From IMG/VR virus record IMGVR_UViG_2851955134_000009: a DNA stretch of 64,000 nucleotides; one strand, given 5' to 3'. The notes beneath the pieces were generated by a model. It worked only from the letters and a program-made list of their open reading frames with translations. It did no database searches and was not told the origin of the DNA. Position 1 is the stretch's first letter, and every line of letters begins with the position of its first letter. The DNA comes from a virus. Taxonomy: Duplodnaviria; Heunggongvirae; Uroviricota; Caudoviricetes. Below are positions 5,580-14,704 of the stretch, in pieces. A program made the translations under genes and the position numbers.

Positions 5580-6433
5580 GCACCATCCTGAAATGGGCGG
5601 GAAATAAAACCGCCATTATGCCAGAACTGAAAAAATACCTTCCTGCTGGCCCGCGACTGGTTGAACCTTTCGCGGGTTCCTGTGCTGTGATGATGGAAAC
5701 GGATTATCCCAGCTATCTGGTTGCGGATATTAATCCTGATTTAATCAACCTCTATAAAAAGGTTGCCGCTGATTGTGAATCGTTTATATCTCGCGCCAGA
5801 GTTTTATTTGAGATCGCAAACAGGGAGGTGGCTTATTACAACATAAGGCAGGAGTTTAACTGCTCAACTGAAATTACTGATTTCATGAAAGCGGTATATT
5901 TCCTGTATCTCAATCGTCACGGTTACCGTGGTTTATGTCGCTATAACAAGAGCGGGCATTTCAACATTCCCTACGGTAATTATAAAAATCCGTATTTCCC
6001 TGAAAAAGAACTTCGCACATTTGCAGAAAAAGCCCAGCGAGCAACGTTTATCTGCGCCAGCTTTGATGAAACGCTGGCGATGTTGAAGGCGGGAGATGTG
6101 GTGTATTGCGATCCGCCATATGACGGTACGTTTTCCGGCTATCACACTGATGGTTTCACTGAAGATGACCAGTATCACCTGGCATCCGTTCTTGAACATC
6201 GGTCATCAGAAGGACATCCGGTCATTGTTTCTAACAGTGACACATCCCTGATCCGTTCGCTGTATCGCAATTTTACTCACCACTATATCAAGGTAAAACG
6301 CAGCATCGGTGTGGCAGCTGGCGAGGGTAAATCAGCAACAGAAATCATTGCTGTTTCCGGGCCGCGCTGCTGGATGGGATTTGATTATTCGCGTGGCGTG
6401 GATAGTTCTGCCGTGTACGGAGTACGTGCATGA
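5576..6433 (+). CDS. dam: DNA N6-adenine methyltransferase (Dam family, orphan)
   Basis: ILKWAGNK N-terminal motif and DPPY catalytic motif ([10 protein letters not shown]); GGAGG RBS; no adjacent restriction gene. Confidence 0.85.
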
Positions 6434-8844
6434 GTCATGCCGATATGAACAACTGCTGCGGCTTTAACGAGGCTGCCGCAGCATTCTCATGGAACAGCCC
6501 GAAAAAGGCCATTAACCCTTATCTGGACCCGGCGGAAGTTGCGCCGGTTTCTACGCTTTCAAACCTGATCACTCTGTACGCTGCCGATAACGAGCAGGAA
6601 CAGTTGCGCCGCGAGGCACTGAGTGATCAGGTCTGGGAGCGTTATTTCTTTAATGAATCACGTGATCCTGTCCAGCGCGAAATGGAGCAGGATAAGCTCA
6701 TTAGCCGGGCAAAGCTGGCGCATGAGCAGCAGCGTTTTAATTCAGACATGGTCATTCTGGCGGACGTCAACGCCCAGCCTTCCCATATCAGCAAGCCGCT
6801 GATGCAACGTATTGAATACTTCAGCAGCCTGGGCAGGCCAAAGGCTTATTCCCGCTATTTACGTGAGACGATTAAGCCATGTCTGGAACGACTGGAGCAT
6901 GTACGCGACAGTCAGCTATCTGCATCTTTTCGCTTTATGGCAAGCAATGAAGGGCTGGACGGCCTGCTGATCCTGCCTGAAATGAGTCAGGATCAGGTGA
7001 AACGCCTGTCCACCCTGGTAGCTGCGCATATGAGTATGTGCCTTGATGCAGCTTGTGGTGATTTGTATGCCACCGATGACGTTAAGCCAGAAGAAATCCG
7101 CAAGACATGGGAAAAGGTGGCAGCGGAAACCCTGCGTCTGGATGTCATCCCACCTGCGTTTGAGCAACTCCGTCGGAAAAGAAACCGCCGTAAACCCGTG
7201 CCCTATGAACTCATTCCGGGTTCGCTGGCGCGTATGTTGTGCGCCGACTGGTGGTATCGGAAATTATGGAAGATGCGTTGCGAATGGCGGGAAGAGCAGT
7301 TGCGCGCTGTTTGCCTGGTCAGCAAAAAAGCATCTCCTTATGTCAGCTATGAAGCCGTGATGCATAAACGTGAGCAGCGCCGTAAGTCGCTGGAGTTTTT
7401 CCGTTCTCATGAACTGGTGAACGAAGACGGCGACACGCTGGACATGGAGGATGTGGTAAACGCCAGCAGCAGCAACCCTGCGCATCGCCGCAATGAGATG
7501 ATGGCCTGTGTTAAAGGTCTGGAGCTTATCGCGGAAATGCGCGGTGACTGCGCCGTTTTCTACACTATCACCTGTCCGTCGCGTTTCCATTCCACGCTAA
7601 ATAACGGCAGACCAAACCCGACCTGGACAAACGCGACGGTAAGACAAAGCAGCGATTATCTGGTCGGCATGTTTGCTGCATTTCGTAAGGCGATGCACAA
7701 AGCCGGGTTGCGCTGGTATGGCGTGCGGGTGGCTGAGCCGCATCATGATGGCACAGTTCACTGGCACCTGTTGTGTTTCATGCGCAAAAAAGACCGCCGT
7801 GCCATCACTGCATTACTGCGTAAGTTTGCCATCCGTGAAGACCGCGAGGAGCTGGGCAATAACACTGGGCCGCGCTTTAAGTCTGAGTTGATTAACCCGC
7901 GCAAAGGAACGCCGACAAGCTACATCGCGAAATATATCAGTAAGAACATTGACGGTCGTGGTCTGGCTGGCGAGATCAGCAAGGAAACGGGTAAATCTCT
8001 GCGTGATAACGCTGAATACGTGAATGCCTGGGCGTCTCTGCATCGTGTTCAGCAATTCCGCTTCTTTGGTATTCCGGGGCGTCAGGCTTACCGTGAACTT
8101 CGCTTGCTGGCTGGTCAGGCGGCAAGGCAACAGGGTGACAAAAAAGCAGGTGCGCCGGTACTGGATAACCCGCGTCTTGATGCCATTCTGGCTGCTGCTG
8201 ATGCTGGTTGTTTTGCCACCTACATCATGAAGCAGGGCGGCGTACTGGTTCCCCGTAAATATCACCTCATCAGAACCGCTTATGAAATCAACGAAGAGCC
8301 GACCGCCTATGGCGATCACGGCATTCGTATTTATGGCATCTGGTCACCCATTGCAGAGGGCAAGATCTGCACTCATGCAGTGAAGTGGAAAATGGTTCGT
8401 AAAGCCGTTGACGTTCAGGAGGCGGCAGCCGACCAGGGCGCTTGCGCCCCTTGGACTCGTGGCAATAACTGTCCCCTTGCTGAAAATTTGAACCAACAAG
8501 GGAAAGACAAATCAGCTGATGGGGATACCAGGACGGACATTACCCGCATGGATGACAAGGAGTTGCACGATTACCTGCACAGTATGAGCAAAAAAGAGCG
8601 CCGGGAACTGGCTGCAAGGTTACGCCTGGTGAAACCGAAACGGCGTAAAGACTACAAACAGCGAATTACAGACCATCAGCGACAGCAGCTCGTCTATGAA
8701 CTGAAGTCCAGAGGATTTAATGGCAGCGAGAAAGAGGTCGATTTACTCCTTCGCGGCGGCAGTATTCCGTCAGGAGCAGGCCTGCGTATCTTCTATCGGA
8801 ACCAGCGTTTGCAGGAAGATGATAAGTGGCGAAACCTGTATTAA
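6430..8844 (+). CDS. A: Replication initiation endonuclease (P2 gpA family, rolling-circle)
   Basis: 804 aa; active-site tyrosine region [15 protein letters not shown]; ATGA overlap with dam. Confidence 0.85.
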
Positions 8845-9589: not shown

Positions 9590-10015
9590 CTACTTAATTG
9601 AGTCCAGTAACAAGTTACAGTTACTCTCATTGTAGAGAGAACGAGCAATTAGTGTTACCTGCTTTCCATTCATTCCCGGCTTATCCCATAACACAGCTTC
9701 TTGCGACGCCACAAATTCAGCATAATCAATTATGCGTTGTTCGTGATCTGGTTCCTCATAGCCAAAGTATGAGAGCGCATCGTTGTAAGCGTGGTAAGCT
9801 GCTTTCTGTAATATCTTGATATCGGCTGTAGGTACTTGCTCCGTGTAGCTAGGATCTAATTGTGTGCTACTGCCATAGAATGCACATGAAAGGTAAGATA
9901 TTGATTTCTGTTGAGCTTTAGTTCCTTTCTCATAGTTTTTAGCTGTTACCGCCTGAACAGGGACGCTAACAAAGCTTGCAACCAGAATTAAAATTAATAC
10001 GTAAAAGCTTTTCAT
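9590..10015 (-). CDS. Secreted protein of unknown function (cargo)
   Basis: 141 aa with N-terminal signal peptide (MKSFYVLILILVASFVSVPVQA); low GC; GAGGT RBS. Confidence 0.6.
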   Translation of the reverse strand: MKSFYVLILILVASFVSVPVQAVTAKNYEKGTKAQQKSISYLSCAFYGSSTQLDPSYTEQVPTADIKILQKAAYHAYNDALSYFGYEEPDHEQRIIDYAEFVASQEAVLWDKPGMNGKQVTLIARSLYNESNCNLLLDSIK

Positions 10016-10288: not shown

Positions 10289-10312
10289 GCCCGCCAGAAC
10301 TGGCGGGCTTTT
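10289..10312 (+). terminator. Rho-independent terminator
   Basis: GCCCGCC-AGAACT-GGCGGGC hairpin followed by TTTT. Confidence 0.6.
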
Positions 10313-10357
10313 GCGTAGATCATGCTCCTGCATGAAAACCACTACATAAAGCGGGCA

Positions 10358-10376
10358 GGCGTGGCGGGGATACGAG
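10358..10376. other. Candidate cos (cohesive end) site of the P2-like phage
   Basis: GGCGTGGCGGGGA matches the start of the P2/186 19-nt cos sequence as recalled (GGCG[A/T]GGCGGGGAAAGCA.); lies between replication and head genes as expected. Confidence 0.4.
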
Positions 10377-10462
10377 CGCGCGTATTAGGTTTTATTTGAG
10401 AGCTTGTTAAATATGATGTTTCACAATTAGAATTGTCCGTAAATCATTCTGTTGGAGGCATT

Positions 10463-10645
10463 ATGGAATACTTAAGCGAAATCATTAGTTTTTTGGCAGG
10501 GGCGGGTATCAGTTGGGCTATTACTTTCAATGTGTATAATTACAAAGTAAAGCAAATTTGTATGAACCAAAGTTCTCCCATTCAAAATGGAAATACAGTG
10601 ACAAACGGAAGCATTGTCGGTAGAGATCAGACTAATTCTCACTAA
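10463..10645 (+). CDS. Small membrane protein, first gene of candidate cassette
   Basis: 60 aa from ATG with GGAGG RBS; one TM helix (IISFLAGAGISWAITF); C-terminal NGSIVGRDQTN motif repeated in the next ORF. Confidence 0.5.
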   Translation: MEYLSEIISFLAGAGISWAITFNVYNYKVKQICMNQSSPIQNGNTVTNGSIVGRDQTNSH

Positions 10646-10658
10646 GGGAGTGATTGGT

Positions 10659-11225
10659 GTGTTTAGTAAACAGGAGCAATCAGGTAATAGAGTAAGAAAT
10701 GGGAGTATTGTTGGAGGGAGTCAAACAAACCACATTACCAATATAGTTCGTAGTAGTAATCGAACTTTAGAGCGTTTGTACCAAAAGTTCTCTCAAGAAG
10801 ATGGAACTATGGGGGGGCAGGATTTTTGTGATAAGTTAAAGCACTATTTAGCCTCGGATACCAATCCAGATATAAGAGATTTAGCTACAAAGCTAACTGA
10901 TAGTGATAGAACTGAATTAATTTACTTTGCAACTGCTCTTAAAGAGCAAGCCCTCAAGGCGATAATGAAGTGCCAATCTTCCAAAACCGCACAAGAAATA
11001 TATGCGTTTATTCTTGATAAAATTCATGCTGATTTTATGCTCAAAATTACACCTCTTATTCAGAAGGATGAGGACCGAGTAATTGTTGATGAAAAAATTT
11101 CATTGGTATTAGAAAATATTAGTGAAATGTTGGGCGATAATTTGTTAAACTTATCCGAAAAGGATCTTTTGGGACTGTTGTATTTTTTAGGCGGAAATTG
11201 TTATATAAGGTGGGATAAATGTTAG
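10659..11225 (+). CDS. Hypothetical protein, candidate cassette component
   Basis: About 188 aa from GTG at 10659 (GTG at 10650 also possible); low GC; N-terminal NGSIVGGSQTN repeat; ends overlapping next start. Confidence 0.55.
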   Translation: MFSKQEQSGNRVRNGSIVGGSQTNHITNIVRSSNRTLERLYQKFSQEDGTMGGQDFCDKLKHYLASDTNPDIRDLATKLTDSDRTELIYFATALKEQALKAIMKCQSSKTAQEIYAFILDKIHADFMLKITPLIQKDEDRVIVDEKISLVLENISEMLGDNLLNLSEKDLLGLLYFLGGNCYIRWDKC

Positions 11226-11719
11226 TTTATCATCCAGCATATGATGCCTATCATTGTCTATTTAGAATGATGGCAATTATGGAAAATACAAATCGGCTTG
11301 AGATTGATAAGCTTAAAATATTGGATTTTTACATTTTATTTCCTGCGTTATTAAGTGAAGTGAAAATGCCGAGAGAATTTATTAAAATTAAAAAAACAGC
11401 AAAACTACATCATAATGAATATCATGATCCATTGAGTCCAAGGATTATTTTCAAGGAAATGCGTCAAATACAGGATGCAGCACTAAAATGTATGCTTGCG
11501 ACTGGTTATATTGATTCTGATGATTTCAGCAATGGTTTTGTCTCAAGAACAAATAAACAATTACCACTGAACCTAGCCTTAGAAATGGGCGTTTTTTTAG
11601 AGCGCAAAGAACCGTTTTCATCTTTCATTACACAAAAGATGGCTAAATTTGATCTGACTGGACCTGATGGATTGAAGGCTAGAACTAAACTTATGGAGTA
11701 TAGATATGACACTTATTAA
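11219..11719 (+). CDS. Hypothetical protein, candidate cassette component
   Basis: 166 aa; ATG with AAGGTGGG RBS; 7-nt overlap with upstream gene and 14-nt overlap with the ATPase gene. Confidence 0.6.
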   Translation: MLVYHPAYDAYHCLFRMMAIMENTNRLEIDKLKILDFYILFPALLSEVKMPREFIKIKKTAKLHHNEYHDPLSPRIIFKEMRQIQDAALKCMLATGYIDSDDFSNGFVSRTNKQLPLNLALEMGVFLERKEPFSSFITQKMAKFDLTGPDGLKARTKLMEYRYDTY

Positions 11720-13610
11720 GCCTACTCTTATTGTAACCAGATTAACAGTTTTTCAACACGGACATCGTGCATTTGATTGTGAATTCCACAAAGGTGTTAA
11801 CATTATTCGTGGGCGAAATAGTTCTGGTAAAACTACAATAATGGATATGCTGGCATTTTCATTGGGAGCTGAAAATATCAGGTGGAAACCACAGGCTTTG
11901 AAATGCACTAGAACAATCGTTGAAGTGCTTCTCAATAATGAGAAAGCATGCTTTAAACGAGAGATATCTATTGAGCAAATGCGACCTCTTTATATTTATT
12001 GGGGAGCGATGGATAAGGCTTTGAATGCTGGGGAACACGAATGGGATTTATACCCATTCAAGAGAACTGAGAGTAAAATTAGCTTCACCCAAGCTATTTT
12101 CAATGCATTATCAATGCCCTTGGCACAAGGTGCTGGTTCTTCTAATTTGACATTGCATCAGATTTTACGTGTCTTGTATGCAGATCAGCCGTCGTTACAT
12201 AGTCCAATTTTTCGATTTGACAGATTTGATAATGCTCTTACCCGTGAGACGGTAGGTGGATACTTATGTGGTGTTTATAATGATGAGTTGTACAATGCAC
12301 AACTTTCTTTAAGAGATGTTGAGACCGAACTAACAAAGAAAGTTACTGAATTAAAAAGTATCTTTACTGTATTAGGTAGATCTGGACAGGCTCCAGATTT
12401 ACAAGGTATTGATGAGAAAATAAAGCATCTAAATAAATTGAGAGCTATTGAGAATGTAAAACTAACAAATAGAGCTATTATAACTAATGAAGAAGGGGCT
12501 GATTCTGAAAAACGAATGGGTACTATCAGGGAGGAACTCAATGAAGCTAAAAGGAAATTATCTTCCCTAAAAGATAAAATCCAATCTTTGGATTTTGAAA
12601 TTTCAGATTCTGATATGTTTATATCAGAATTAAATGAGCGGCTAAAAAACTTAGAACAGTCTCGAGAAACGCGTGCTATATTTGATAGTATGAATTTTGA
12701 TTTTTGCCCTAGTTGTCTTTCCAAAATAGATAAGGCTCATAATGATCATGTTTGTCATCTATGTAAAGTGGAACAATTAGATGATAAAGCTGAAAATCAG
12801 TTATTAAGAATGAAAAATGAATTAACTCTTCAAATCAAAGAATCTCTTCAATTAATGGATAGAAGAAAAGAAGAGTTGGTAAGATTAAAGCGAGATGTTC
12901 CTTTAGCTGAGAGTGAATTAAAAAGGCTTGAACAGGATTATTTCAAAGAGTCACACTATTGGTCTTCACCGCAAGAGTTAGCTGTAGGTAAAATATATAG
13001 GGAAATTGGACGGCTTGATGAAGAAATAAAAAGAGCTTATGAAGATAAGAAGCTTATTGTTGTTATTAATGAACTTCAAGAGCGTCGCGATGAACTTCAG
13101 GCGGAAAAAAATAGACTTGATGATCTTATTGAACTTTATGAAGAAAAAGAGGAAGTTCTTAAAGATAAAATTTATGCTTCAGTGAGCTCAATAGCACAAG
13201 AGCTTTTACAAGAAGATTTGCCTTTGCAAAAAGAGTTTATGTCTCCTGAAAGTGTGGAGTTTAGTTTTACTGATAATAGCGTTTATGTGAATGGTAGTAA
13301 GAACTTTTCTGAAAGTTCAGCTGTAGTATTAAGGCATATATTCCATTTGGCACTACTTTCAGCAAGTATAGAGAACCACTCAATGCGACTTCCAAGATTT
13401 ATGATGTTAGATGGGATCGACGATGGTGGAATGGAAAAAGAACGGAGTCACAATTTACAGGAAATAATAATTGATGAGTGCTCACGTTATGAACATGATT
13501 ATCAGTTGATATTTGCAACATCTGAAATAAATCCCAAATACAGTGAGAGTGAATATATTGTTGGTGAGTATTATTCGCCAGATAATTATTCATTGAAAAT
13601 AATTGAGTAA
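11706..13610 (+). CDS. SMC/Rad50-like ABC ATPase with long coiled-coil insert and CxxC...CxxC hook-like motif
   Basis: 634 aa; Walker A GRNSSGKTT near N-terminus, about 300-aa K/E-rich coiled coil with CPSC-x10-CHLC, C-terminal Walker-B-like FMMLDGIDD; no TOPRIM or nuclease domain visible. Confidence 0.75.
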   Translation: MTLIKPTLIVTRLTVFQHGHRAFDCEFHKGVNIIRGRNSSGKTTIMDMLAFSLGAENIRWKPQALKCTRTIVEVLLNNEKACFKREISIEQMRPLYIYWGAMDKALNAGEHEWDLYPFKRTESKISFTQAIFNALSMPLAQGAGSSNLTLHQILRVLYADQPSLHSPIFRFDRFDNALTRETVGGYLCGVYNDELYNAQLSLRDVETELTKKVTELKSIFTVLGRSGQAPDLQGIDEKIKHLNKLRAIENVKLTNRAIITNEEGADSEKRMGTIREELNEAKRKLSSLKDKIQSLDFEISDSDMFISELNERLKNLEQSRETRAIFDSMNFDFCPSCLSKIDKAHNDHVCHLCKVEQLDDKAENQLLRMKNELTLQIKESLQLMDRRKEELVRLKRDVPLAESELKRLEQDYFKESHYWSSPQELAVGKIYREIGRLDEEIKRAYEDKKLIVVINELQERRDELQAEKNRLDDLIELYEEKEEVLKDKIYASVSSIAQELLQEDLPLQKEFMSPESVEFSFTDNSVYVNGSKNFSESSAVVLRHIFHLALLSASIENHSMRLPRFMMLDGIDDGGMEKERSHNLQEIIIDECSRYEHDYQLIFATSEINPKYSESEYIVGEYYSPDNYSLKIIE

Positions 13611-13614
13611 TTGT

Positions 13615-13645
13615 ATATGTGGCTGCTATTTTTGTAGCCACATAT
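13615..13645. terminator. Perfect 10-bp hairpin between convergent ATPase and Q genes (possible bidirectional terminator)
   Basis: ATATGTGGCT-(11 nt loop)-AGCCACATAT immediately after the ATPase stop; no clean U-tract. Confidence 0.35.
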
Positions 13646-13675
13646 AAATTACTGTCTGAACTTTATTGTTTTTGT

Positions 13676-14704
13676 TCAAAGTACGTATGGTCTAAACCTA
13701 ATTATTTCTATTTCAAGCCAGTCGTTTAATTGATCAAATCTTTTCTGCATGGGCACCAATTCATTGCGCATAAATACCTTACTAGCCTTCTCCACATCCC
13801 CAAACCCCCCAACATTATTCGGCAAAATTCCCATCATCTGAGGCGGTACGCGGTGTGCAGCCATCATGTCGTCCCGGCTCACGTTCTTGATGTTCAGAAA
13901 TTCATCTTTCGCTGCGACTTCTGACAACGGGATAATCTGAAGTCCGTCCTTTTTGCCGTTAGGCGAGTACATAAACAGATTGCGGAAGTTGCCTGGACCT
14001 TTGGCGCTTTTCATCGCGTTGCGGAGGTTGTTCACATCCTCCTGATTCTGCGCGGCGTCGGTCATGTACATGATGAAGCCTGCATGACTACCGTTGATGT
14101 AATACTTACGGCGGAACAGCGTGGCGGATTCGTTGAGCAGGGCGGATGGAATGGCAGAAAGATAGCCGGGCAGGCCGTAGATCTCCTGGTTGATGTCCGG
14201 TTCCATCAGATGAAAAATGCTGCCTTTCGTGAACTGATACGGCTGGGTTGTCATACCGTATTGCACAAACCAGTAGGTATCCAGGTCTAACCCGCGTCGG
14301 GTGTATTTTGCCAGCGCAGGCTCAAGGGCGATAACTTCACCGAATCGGTTCGTGCGTTTCTCCAGGTAGGCGTTACCAAATACCAGATAGTCCTGCACAA
14401 AACGCGAAAAAGCCTGTTGGCTGAGCAGCGGATGAGGGATATAGGTACTGGTCAGAATGTTGCACTTTACTGCAATCGGGGAACTGTGATGCACGGCAGC
14501 GCGGAAGGTGCGCGCCAGTCCGTCAAAGCTGACGGGAGGCTCATACCAGCGATCTGTCTGAACACATTCCACATAGTCCAGCAGTTCGCGGCGGTCAAGT
14601 ACTGGAACGGGATCACCGAAGCTGAATGCTTCGGCTGAAGTCTGGTTTTTATGCTGGATCTGATTCGTCGCCGCAGCGCGGTTTTTCTTACTCTTTCCCA
14701 TCAA
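13676..14704 (-). CDS. Q: Portal protein (P2 gpQ-like)
   Basis: 342 aa; size and position match P2 Q next to the terminase ATPase. Confidence 0.85.
   Translation of the reverse strand: MMGKSKKNRAAATNQIQHKNQTSAEAFSFGDPVPVLDRRELLDYVECVQTDRWYEPPVSFDGLARTFRAAVHHSSPIAVKCNILTSTYIPHPLLSQQAFSRFVQDYLVFGNAYLEKRTNRFGEVIALEPALAKYTRRGLDLDTYWFVQYGMTTQPYQFTKGSIFHLMEPDINQEIYGLPGYLSAIPSALLNESATLFRRKYYINGSHAGFIMYMTDAAQNQEDVNNLRNAMKSAKGPGNFRNLFMYSPNGKKDGLQIIPLSEVAAKDEFLNIKNVSRDDMMAAHRVPPQMMGILPNNVGGFGDVEKASKVFMRNELVPMQKRFDQLNDWLEIEIIRFRPYVL

Follow-up and report, generated by a model that had tools for sequence, protein, structure and literature searches.

The window analysed here is a stretch of 64,000 nucleotides (nt) recorded as the IMG/VR virus IMGVR_UViG_2851955134_000009; it is Escherichia coli chromosome, with 100% identity to strain AR_0085, and a P2/Fels-2-like prophage within it houses a cassette of four plus-strand genes. 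The locus raises the question of which kind of system the four genes form and, if this system is a defence, which of its proteins would act on the infected cell. The cassette comprises, all on the plus strand, gene 1 (10463-10645, 60 amino acids (aa), ATG start with GGAGG 6 nt upstream), gene 2 (10659-11225, 188 aa, GTG start with AAGGGAG upstream), gene 3 (11219-11719, 166 aa) and gene 4 (11706-13610, 634 aa), with junctions of +13 nt (genes 1/2), -7 nt (genes 2/3) and -14 nt (genes 3/4). The GTG start of gene 2 is the choice of the NCBI Prokaryotic Genome Annotation Pipeline (PGAP), backed by the N-termini of homologues; an alternative reading in the list of open reading frames (ORFs) starts at an in-frame TTG at 10614 and gives 203 aa. 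The GC content of the cassette is 31-39%, against 51-58% in the flanking phage genes. A first-pass annotation had described a compact low-GC operon of four plus-strand genes, and all four ORFs are found where it had placed them; it had further proposed an undescribed, defence-type system carried as prophage cargo, with the logic of ABC three-component (ABC-3C) or Lamassu systems and with the membrane protein encoded by gene 1 as a possible effector. The explanation favoured here on balance, from the features of the sequences, is that the cassette would be a four-gene variant of type II Lamassu acting by abortive infection, in which a membrane peptide effector would be recruited by means of a shared motif.

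The proteins of genes 2, 3 and 4 were assigned using profile searches. The gene 2 protein corresponds to Pfam PF20285, CTD9 («C-terminal domain 9 of ABC-3C systems», E 2.5e-30, nt 10878-11213), and its score of 105.7 bits against a cut-off of 27.9 identifies it as carrying the C-terminal docking domain of the LmuA side. The gene 3 protein corresponds over its full length to Pfam PF20291, MC5 («ABC-3C middle component 5», E 1.6e-57); it has a weak match to LmuC in PADLOC (E 8.7e-4) and stands at the operon position expected for the middle component. The gene 4 protein matches the PADLOC LmuB models PDLC03862 (E 9.8e-43, residues 5-572) and PDLC03859 (E 4e-42, residues 13-623) as well as phrog_1637 (E 8e-204), and has the build of LmuB, i.e. 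an SMC/Rad50-like ABC ATPase with a head interrupted by a coiled coil of ~300 aa. The names given by PGAP/RefSeq are «ABC-three component system protein» for gene 2, «ABC-three component system middle component 5» for gene 3 and «ATP-binding protein» for gene 4. It is almost certain that the core of the cassette is a type II Lamassu (DdmABC/ABC-3C). The CTD9, MC5 and LmuB matches bear out the proposal of a defence-type operon of ABC-3C/Lamassu logic, and those to CTD9 and MC5, together with the RefSeq names, overturn the statement that the partners of the ATPase do not obviously match known families. Since the three large proteins already belong to known families and are named in RefSeq, they cannot be called an undescribed system; profile searches assign three of the four components to a characterised family and leave gene 1 unassigned, together with a motif, shared and co-evolving with that of its neighbour, to which the first-pass annotation had not drawn attention.

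The conservation of LmuB was read from an alignment of 65 orthologous ATPases. The Walker A motif G36-R-N-S-S-G-K42-T43 (11811-11834, plus strand) is at least 60% conserved at its G, S, S, G and K positions, and at the apex of the coiled coil a zinc-hook-like element, C334-P-S-C337...C350-H-L-C353 (12705-12764, plus strand), has four cysteines and a proline that are at least 90% conserved. The Walker-B-like segment P563-RFMMLD569-GIDDGGME577 (13392-13436, plus strand) is degenerate, D-G replacing D-E, and is conserved as «Prf...D.i.d.GMe»; the Q-loop region and an FSxSS signature-like motif are conserved as well. According to a review (PMC10586767), LmuB typically has an atypical Walker B and a zinc hook of the form «CPxCG or similar». 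All the features first noticed in the ATPase were seen again (the Walker A, the coiled coil of ~300 aa, the Walker-B-like FMMLD at residues 565-569 and the lack of a nuclease domain), and searches of Pfam, PADLOC and NCBIfam found no nuclease or other catalytic domain in either MC5 or LmuB. A search of the PDB sequences with LmuB, MC5 and a CTD9 profile gave no sequence-level match to any solved chain.

The ATPase also has weak matches to Rad50, SMC and SbcC models, which speaks for a function outside defence, as an SbcC/Rad50-like accessory module of phage DNA repair or replication. Hardly any weight is given to this possibility: the matches in question span only the P-loop or the coiled coil and fall well short of the curated cut-offs, the cassette has no Mre11/SbcD partner, and the best matches are specific to Lamassu. 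It is further opposed by the foreign GC content of the cassette, by its patchy spread (the full cassette occurs in 4 of 5,426 complete E. coli genomes) and by its position in the interval between gpA and Q, an anti-phage hotspot according to Rousset et al. (PMC9122126).

In the gene 2 protein, an N-terminal motif is followed by a helical linker and then by the CTD9 domain, which only ~73 residues precede. The N-terminal enzymatic domain that canonical LmuA proteins carry (nuclease, SIR2, hydrolase, protease etc.) is absent: no effector domain was found N-terminal to CTD9 in Pfam, PADLOC or NCBIfam and no PHROG match carries a function, while none of the PADLOC LmuA models, nor indeed any PADLOC or NCBIfam model, matches the protein. 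In its AlphaFold2 model, residues 1-34 have a predicted local distance difference test score (pLDDT) below 50 and are disordered, and the remainder is helical; the overall pLDDT of 56 was too poor for a fold search. The 38 close homologues span 171-208 aa, so that the short form is not a local truncation. An exhaustive profile search for CTD9 proteins returned 566 clusters at 50% identity (436 at E <= 1e-10), and the best 150 of these 566 clusters are nearly all of 175-200 aa and aligned from the first few residues. We infer that the gene 2 protein is an LmuA reduced to an adaptor.

A few CTD9 homologues have a larger N-terminal domain, such as P0156 (349 aa, CTD9 match E 2e-33), whose extra ~190 N-terminal residues have no Pfam match. 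This region (…GDGPDGGREA…QSKFK…) resembles by eye a restriction-endonuclease-type fold, and P0156 would then be the all-in-one counterpart of the split arrangement; judging from such sequences, all-in-one CTD9 forms coexist with the short form. At the other end of the gene 2 protein (11198-11222), the segment FLGGNC-x-IRWD-x-C is invariant or nearly so family-wide (C181, W185 and C188 in the close set), and a pair of cysteines is conserved at the extreme C-terminus of the CTD9 protein.

With an adaptor in the place of the effector, attention turns to gene 1. Its protein is a single-pass membrane peptide: position 2 is E, residues ~4-25 form a hydrophobic helix, and a basic juxtamembrane patch precedes the tail. 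The AlphaFold2 model (62 homologues) gives a helix at residues 2-34 with pLDDT 79-88 followed by a coil tail. The gene is left uncalled by PGAP and its protein has no model in Pfam, PADLOC or NCBIfam; it matches phrog_17975 (63-residue phage proteins of unknown function) with E 5e-9. Differences from orthologues of 75-88% identity fall mainly at third codon positions (e.g. 6, 6 and 27 by codon position, i.e. 27 of 39). This third-position bias, the PHROG family and the conservation of the gene in ~100 loci establish that gene 1 is a real gene. Across the 76 genome loci described below, the median of the best 17-residue Kyte-Doolittle mean of the small proteins is 2.3, and D or E stands at position 2 in 49 of the 75 unique sequences. 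In 62 of 62 small proteins the flank that follows the helix is more positive than the one that precedes it (means +3.0 vs -0.85), which places the tail in the cytoplasm.

Related loci were gathered from identical-protein look-ups (four loci), from IMG/VR (22) and from one-genome-per-species matches (80 of 126), the last of these being distributed over Gamma-, Beta-, Alpha- and Deltaproteobacteria, Bacteroidota, Verrucomicrobia, Acidobacteria, Elusimicrobia, Cyanobacteria and a clostridial metagenome-assembled genome. Counts for genome loci cover the 76 loci with a parsable CTD9 ORF. An upstream ORF on the same strand, whose C-terminus matches the N-terminus of its neighbour, was present in 71 of the 76; this small ORF has a median length of 59 aa and a median spacer of 4 nt, often -4 or -1. 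Among the five loci without it, at least L057 is a matter of start-codon parsing, an ORF with a typical motif lying upstream of the mis-chosen start. The small gene was likewise found in essentially all of 25 further loci (22 from IMG/VR and 3 others), the copy of L005 being cut by the end of the contig, and every complete IMG/VR locus has it with a matching motif. An MC5 homologue lies directly downstream in 75 of the 76 loci and an LmuB homologue is present in 74, and across ~100 loci only these four genes are syntenic. The consistent presence of the small gene in CTD9-MC5-ABC contexts marks it as a specific fourth component of this subtype.

The same association was obtained starting from the small protein. 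A profile search returned 338 database proteins; among the 120 matches listed, almost all have 49-83 aa, none has a Pfam domain, and nearly all are unnamed or «hypothetical». The contexts checked for homologues retrieved in this independent manner were again CTD9-MC5-ABC. An exception is P0269 (L112 4001-4594), a decayed remnant next to lepA, in which the small membrane protein is intact, the CTD9 gene after it is cut down to 132 aa, and MC5 and the ATPase are missing. In view of these results the small peptide is very probably a functional component of the Lamassu subtype.

Another origin of the pair was considered and rejected. A single gene split by a frameshift or stop into gene 1 and the CTD9 gene is ruled out, separate ORFs being found at every locus and in several phyla; the longer database entries (P0049, P0152 and others) lack a membrane helix and result from start codons placed too far upstream. 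In three metagenome loci (L110, L113 and L114), the small gene and the ATPase were called and ~1 kb between them was left uncalled, a size that fits CTD9 plus MC5; RefSeq shows the reverse, the small gene being the one uncalled. As component genes are left uncalled in one or the other way, automated defence finders will often see the system as incomplete.

What connects the peptide with the adaptor is a short motif that both carry. In the window it occupies residues 41-58 in the tail of the gene 1 protein (QNGNTVTNGSIVGRDQTN, 10583-10636, plus strand) and residues 7-24 at the N-terminus of the gene 2 protein (QSGNRVRNGSIVGGSQTN, 10677-10730, plus strand), 13 of 18 residues being identical. The DNA coding for the two motifs is identical at 35 of 54 positions (65%), and third codon positions account for 12 of the 19 differences, which indicates that the likeness is maintained in the protein and does not stem from a recent duplication; recent gene conversion is ruled out as its source for the same reason. 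In close homologues of gene 2, Q7, N10, G15 and V18 are nearly invariant. The motif has a length of 18-20 residues and is rich in G, N, Q, V and I: the composition of the tails is G 15%, N 13%, V 9% and D 9%, and that of the N-terminal motifs («heads») of the CTD9 proteins G 13%, N 12%, I 9% and V 8%. The tails are also rich in K, a departure from the compositional bias of the BASS motifs of amyloid signalling.

Co-variation was evaluated by scoring every tail against every head and shuffling the partners. The sum of the scores for own partners was 4210, against 2445 +/- 87 for shuffled ones (z = 20, 0 of 10,000 shuffles); for nine clade representatives of the closer set, it was 548 against 382 +/- 45 (0 of 20,000). 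Tails are closer to their own partner than to others, unlike old paralogues that drift independently, and the motif pair therefore co-evolves within each locus across many phyla. The motif varies by clade and shifts on both partners together, as can be seen from the tail and the CTD9 N-terminus of L083 (IKNVKAGGDVVGRDKVHK and LKNIRAGGDVVGRDKITN), L068 (VTQSGNVVGGDQAGRDINRR and ITQSGNIIGGDQAGRDIRKT), L027 (QSNNTVHGDMSAGDMNK and QSNNIVHGDMAARDINK), L076 (QTAGKNSTQYQSGGNMTINK and QTAGKNSTQYQSGGNMTVNN) and L099 (QQNNGNNSVNYQAETITVNN and QQNNGNNSVNYQAEVINVYG); in L099, QQNNGNNSVNYQAE is present in both partners. Two tandem copies of the motif were found in the small proteins of L060, L074, L100, L101 and L055, the neighbouring CTD9 protein having one. 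In this they recall HET-s and some BASS effectors, which have two pseudo-repeats. A distinct class of partners, of 80-92 aa with two hydrophobic segments, is seen in L069, L076, L095 and L104 (Eubacteriales, Bacteroidota) and carries a quite different motif, QTAGxNSxQYQSGGNMTINK. This class suggests several interchangeable motif families on one CTD9-MC5-LmuB chassis.

These observations bear directly on whether a fourth component is needed at all. PGAP annotates just three genes, and Lamassu families with «hypothetical» effectors exist among the DefenseFinder subtypes; the cassette could then be an ordinary three-gene Lamassu with an unrecognised effector in residues 1-88 of the CTD9 protein and an incidental small ORF. 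This view is strongly disfavoured and is considered very improbable, as the small ORF shows purifying selection, forms a PHROG family of its own and, in several phyla, co-varies with the gene next to it, and as residues 1-34 of the CTD9 protein are of low complexity and disordered, so that the ~40 helical residues left over would not suffice for a known enzyme fold.

A mechanism for the recruited peptide can be proposed from the Lamassu of the Cap4-CTD7-MC3 type. There, a single LmuA has its C-terminal oligomerisation domain sequestered by LmuC and two LmuB; it is freed by DNA ends or hairpins along with ATP-driven head engagement and then oligomerises via this domain, whereupon the N-terminal effector becomes active (10.1101/2025.03.14.643221, 10.1101/2025.06.23.660979). 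Effector domains are freely exchanged because the contacts within Lamassu involve the C-terminal domain only (10.1101/2025.03.14.643221, 10.1101/2025.06.23.660979). By extension from these published structures, at rest the LmuB dimer and MC5 would hold the CTD9 domains of single adaptors; LmuB would sense the DNA ends or hairpins of a replicating phage, and the adaptor, once freed, would oligomerise through CTD9, a step carried over by analogy from the other Lamassu subfamilies. The adaptor oligomers would line up their N-terminal motifs into a homotypic, probably in-register beta assembly, which is the kind of assembly suggested by partner motifs that are near-identical and not complementary, of 18-20 residues and without a globular fold. 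This assembly would capture or template the identical tails of the membrane peptides, and the transmembrane helices thus clustered would breach or depolarise the inner membrane, resulting in an aborted infection. The peptide would in this way substitute for the absent effector domain of LmuA, coupled in trans. That it is a membrane effector triggered via the motif is held to be somewhat better supported than not, and the earlier suggestion that the membrane protein may be the effector is judged right. A narrower proposal is that templating by the shared motif is genuinely amyloid-like (prion-type): the CTD9 adaptor, once released and oligomerised, would nucleate a cross-beta fold, and this would spread to the tails of the 60-residue peptide as a minimal membrane executioner. 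It is drawn from the likeness to amyloid signalling and is put forward as a tentative possibility.

Several points weigh against the recruited effector. The motifs hold many charged residues (D, R, K), and the AlphaFold2 monomer models show them as coil, with no strand. The gene 1 helix of the window is only moderately hydrophobic (best 19-residue Kyte-Doolittle mean 1.49), no bundle of the HeLo/Bell type restrains it, and the peptide is probably inserted constitutively, which leaves a harmless resting state unexplained. Defence, toxicity, membrane damage, contact between the motifs and fibrils are predictions made from sequence. As to novelty, the small gene may already be mentioned in the founding ABC-3C paper (Krishnan et al. 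2020), which lay outside the literature search.

A peptide that looks constitutively inserted with its tail in the cytoplasm could instead be a membrane tether, anchoring the Lamassu complex at the inner membrane through the motifs, e.g. to meet incoming phage DNA, the killing being done by the LmuB/CTD9 complex acting on DNA or by a host factor. The pairing and co-variation of the motifs fit any stable binding equally well, and the tight coupling of the genes suggests roughly equal stoichiometry. The tether is nevertheless thought unlikely. It would leave a conserved operon without an effector, only four genes being syntenic and LmuB and MC5 having no catalytic domain, and the motif occupies the exact place of the effector domains of LmuA; moreover, binding partners usually need complementary surfaces and not near-identical sequences, and the tandem copies in some peptides would be superfluous for a simple anchor.

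Homotypic motifs could also cap one another, so that the peptide would be an inhibitor: if the N-terminal motif of the CTD9 protein were toxic or polymerising, the peptide would act as its sink or antidote until the system fires. The upstream position and translational coupling of gene 1, by which the peptide would be made first or in excess, agree with such a role, as does the need of a Lamassu for a means of suppressing accidental activation. This function is regarded as improbable, and more so than the tether, in that LmuB and LmuC already sequester LmuA in the solved Lamassu complexes and a soluble cap could do without the transmembrane helix, which is conserved, with its acidic residue at position 2 and its positive-inside flank. 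Small single-pass peptides are, besides, commonly toxins and not antidotes.

The surroundings of the cassette are those of a cargo slot. The replication gene gpA (6430-8844) lies upstream, separated from the cassette by a small hypothetical gene, a DinI-like gene and a minus-strand gene of 141 aa; the portal gene Q (13676-14704, minus strand) lies downstream, with the terminase beyond. The upstream edge of the slot is a conserved block (10300-10395, no strand assigned), of which 83-96 bp are common to P2/Fels-2-like phages; within the region, this block alone has matches in 1,269 E. coli genomes and in 80 phage records (92-96% identity), and it is probably the cos region. This assignment stays inferred, as a P2 cos 19-mer had no match in the window. 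The first-pass annotation had supposed that the slot is normally almost empty. Fels-2 contradicts this, with a different cargo gene, hypothetical and of 565 aa, between the conserved block (L108 2501-2583) and Q and a hypothetical gene on the other side of the block, and the interval is accordingly a regular cargo slot of the lineage and no oddity of this prophage. Orthologues in Serratia and in many IMG/VR contigs likewise lie between gpA and Q of P2-like prophages, and the cassette was not found in deposited phage genomes by searches with its DNA or with the MC5 protein.

A consensus scan gave a promoter-like sequence, TTGTTA-18-TAGAAT (10404-10433, plus strand), with 9 of 12 matches; this is weak evidence, since the region has no more sites of this kind than shuffled sequence would give. 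The ATPase and portal genes converge, and the unusually stable hairpin that separates them (13606-13653, -25.4 kcal/mol, z = -7.1, equalled by 0 of 200 shuffles) probably acts as a bidirectional terminator; a simple terminator scan missed it. The minus-strand gene of 141 aa (9590-10015, GC ~41%) belongs to the same hotspot, upstream of the conserved block. Its protein has a signal-peptide-like N-terminus (MKSFYVLILILVASFVSVPVQA) and matches phrog_7437 (unknown function) with E 4e-98, and it has no match in Pfam, PADLOC or NCBIfam.

In the searchable literature, no paper linking Lamassu with amyloid signalling or Lamassu with MC5 was found, nor was a description of the motif-coupled peptide arrangement, and the four-gene Lamassu variant with its motif-coupled membrane peptide is apparently both widespread and unreported. 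Lamassu occurs in ~10% of prokaryotic genomes and is understood so far only for nuclease effectors fused to the sensor-docking domain. The present subtype (566 clusters at 50% identity, in many phyla) suggests that the effector can be a separate, unannotated membrane peptide of 50-90 residues whose sole link to the sensor complex is a short matching motif. If this is true, it explains «Lamassu systems missing a known effector», PADLOC and PGAP missing the key gene, and it extends the logic of amyloid signalling, found in fungal, animal and actinobacterial cell death, to SMC-type DNA sensors and to enterobacterial prophages. Matched and mismatched motif pairs would make a simple swappable test bed for the transmission of signals by peptide motifs. 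Should the amyloid proposal also hold, amyloid signalling would for the first time be seen to depend on an SMC/ABC DNA sensor in the place of an NLR, in a pathway widespread in unicellular Gram-negatives and their prophages and with several interchangeable motif families.

Comparison with amyloid-signalling pairs was based on published descriptions of layout, spacing and composition, i.e. the features of such pairs given by Dyrka et al. (10.1101/2020.01.06.895854) and the abortive infection by Bab/Agp of E. coli (10.1101/2024.11.07.622273). In these pairs (Bell/NLR with BASS1-10, Bab/Agp with BASS11, fungal HET-S/NWD2), as in the cassette, the effector has a motif of ~20 aa in C-terminal position and the sensor-side protein has it in N-terminal position; the genes are collinear with the effector first, and the spacer is mostly of 10 bp or less or the genes overlap (13 nt in the window, median 4). 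G, N, Q, V and I are frequent in the motifs and P and L are rare, the motifs are similar between partners and diverse in their families, some effectors have two copies, and an acidic residue occurs at position 2-3 of the N-terminal hydrophobic helix. They differ in that the sensor is here an SMC-type Lamassu complex and not of the NLR/STAND, TPR or Agp type, and in that the effector would be a bare single-pass helix of ~60 aa without the five-helix bundle of Bell/HeLo; the hosts here are mostly unicellular Proteobacteria and Bacteroidota, and amyloid formation is a prediction.

The transmembrane effectors of other abortive-infection systems (e.g. CBASS and Pycsar) and the small single-pass toxins share the proposed end point, a disruption of the membrane by clustered short transmembrane segments, and differ in being activated by nucleotide second messengers or by the level of expression. 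None of these effectors is known to be linked to a sensor-associated adaptor through a peptide motif that both carry.

The closest likeness is that to type II Lamassu/DdmABC/ABC-3C, from which the cassette takes the order of effector-side protein, middle component and SMC-like ATPase, the Walker A, coiled coil and CPxC hook of LmuB, the MC- and CTD-family domains, the prophage-hotspot location and the low GC content; the steps of sensing and release are probably alike. The solved Lamassu is Cap4-CTD7-MC3, whereas the cassette is CTD9-MC5. Canonical LmuA effectors are nucleases, a trypsin-like peptidase, hydrolases, TIR, SIR2 and a dehydrogenase (PMC10586767), and lipases are also reported for CTD8 and CTD9 (10.1101/2025.03.14.643221); the LmuA-like protein of the cassette is without a nuclease, lipase, SIR2 or other enzymatic domain, and an extra conserved gene is present, encoding a membrane peptide that shares the N-terminal motif of the adaptor. 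With the all-in-one CTD9 LmuA proteins (lipase-CTD9, 10.1101/2025.03.14.643221; P0156) the adaptor has in common the C-terminal CTD9 domain for docking and oligomerisation, and the two arrangements differ in what precedes it: a large N-terminal domain in cis in the all-in-one form and, in the cassette, the motif only, the presumed effector being encoded by a separate gene.

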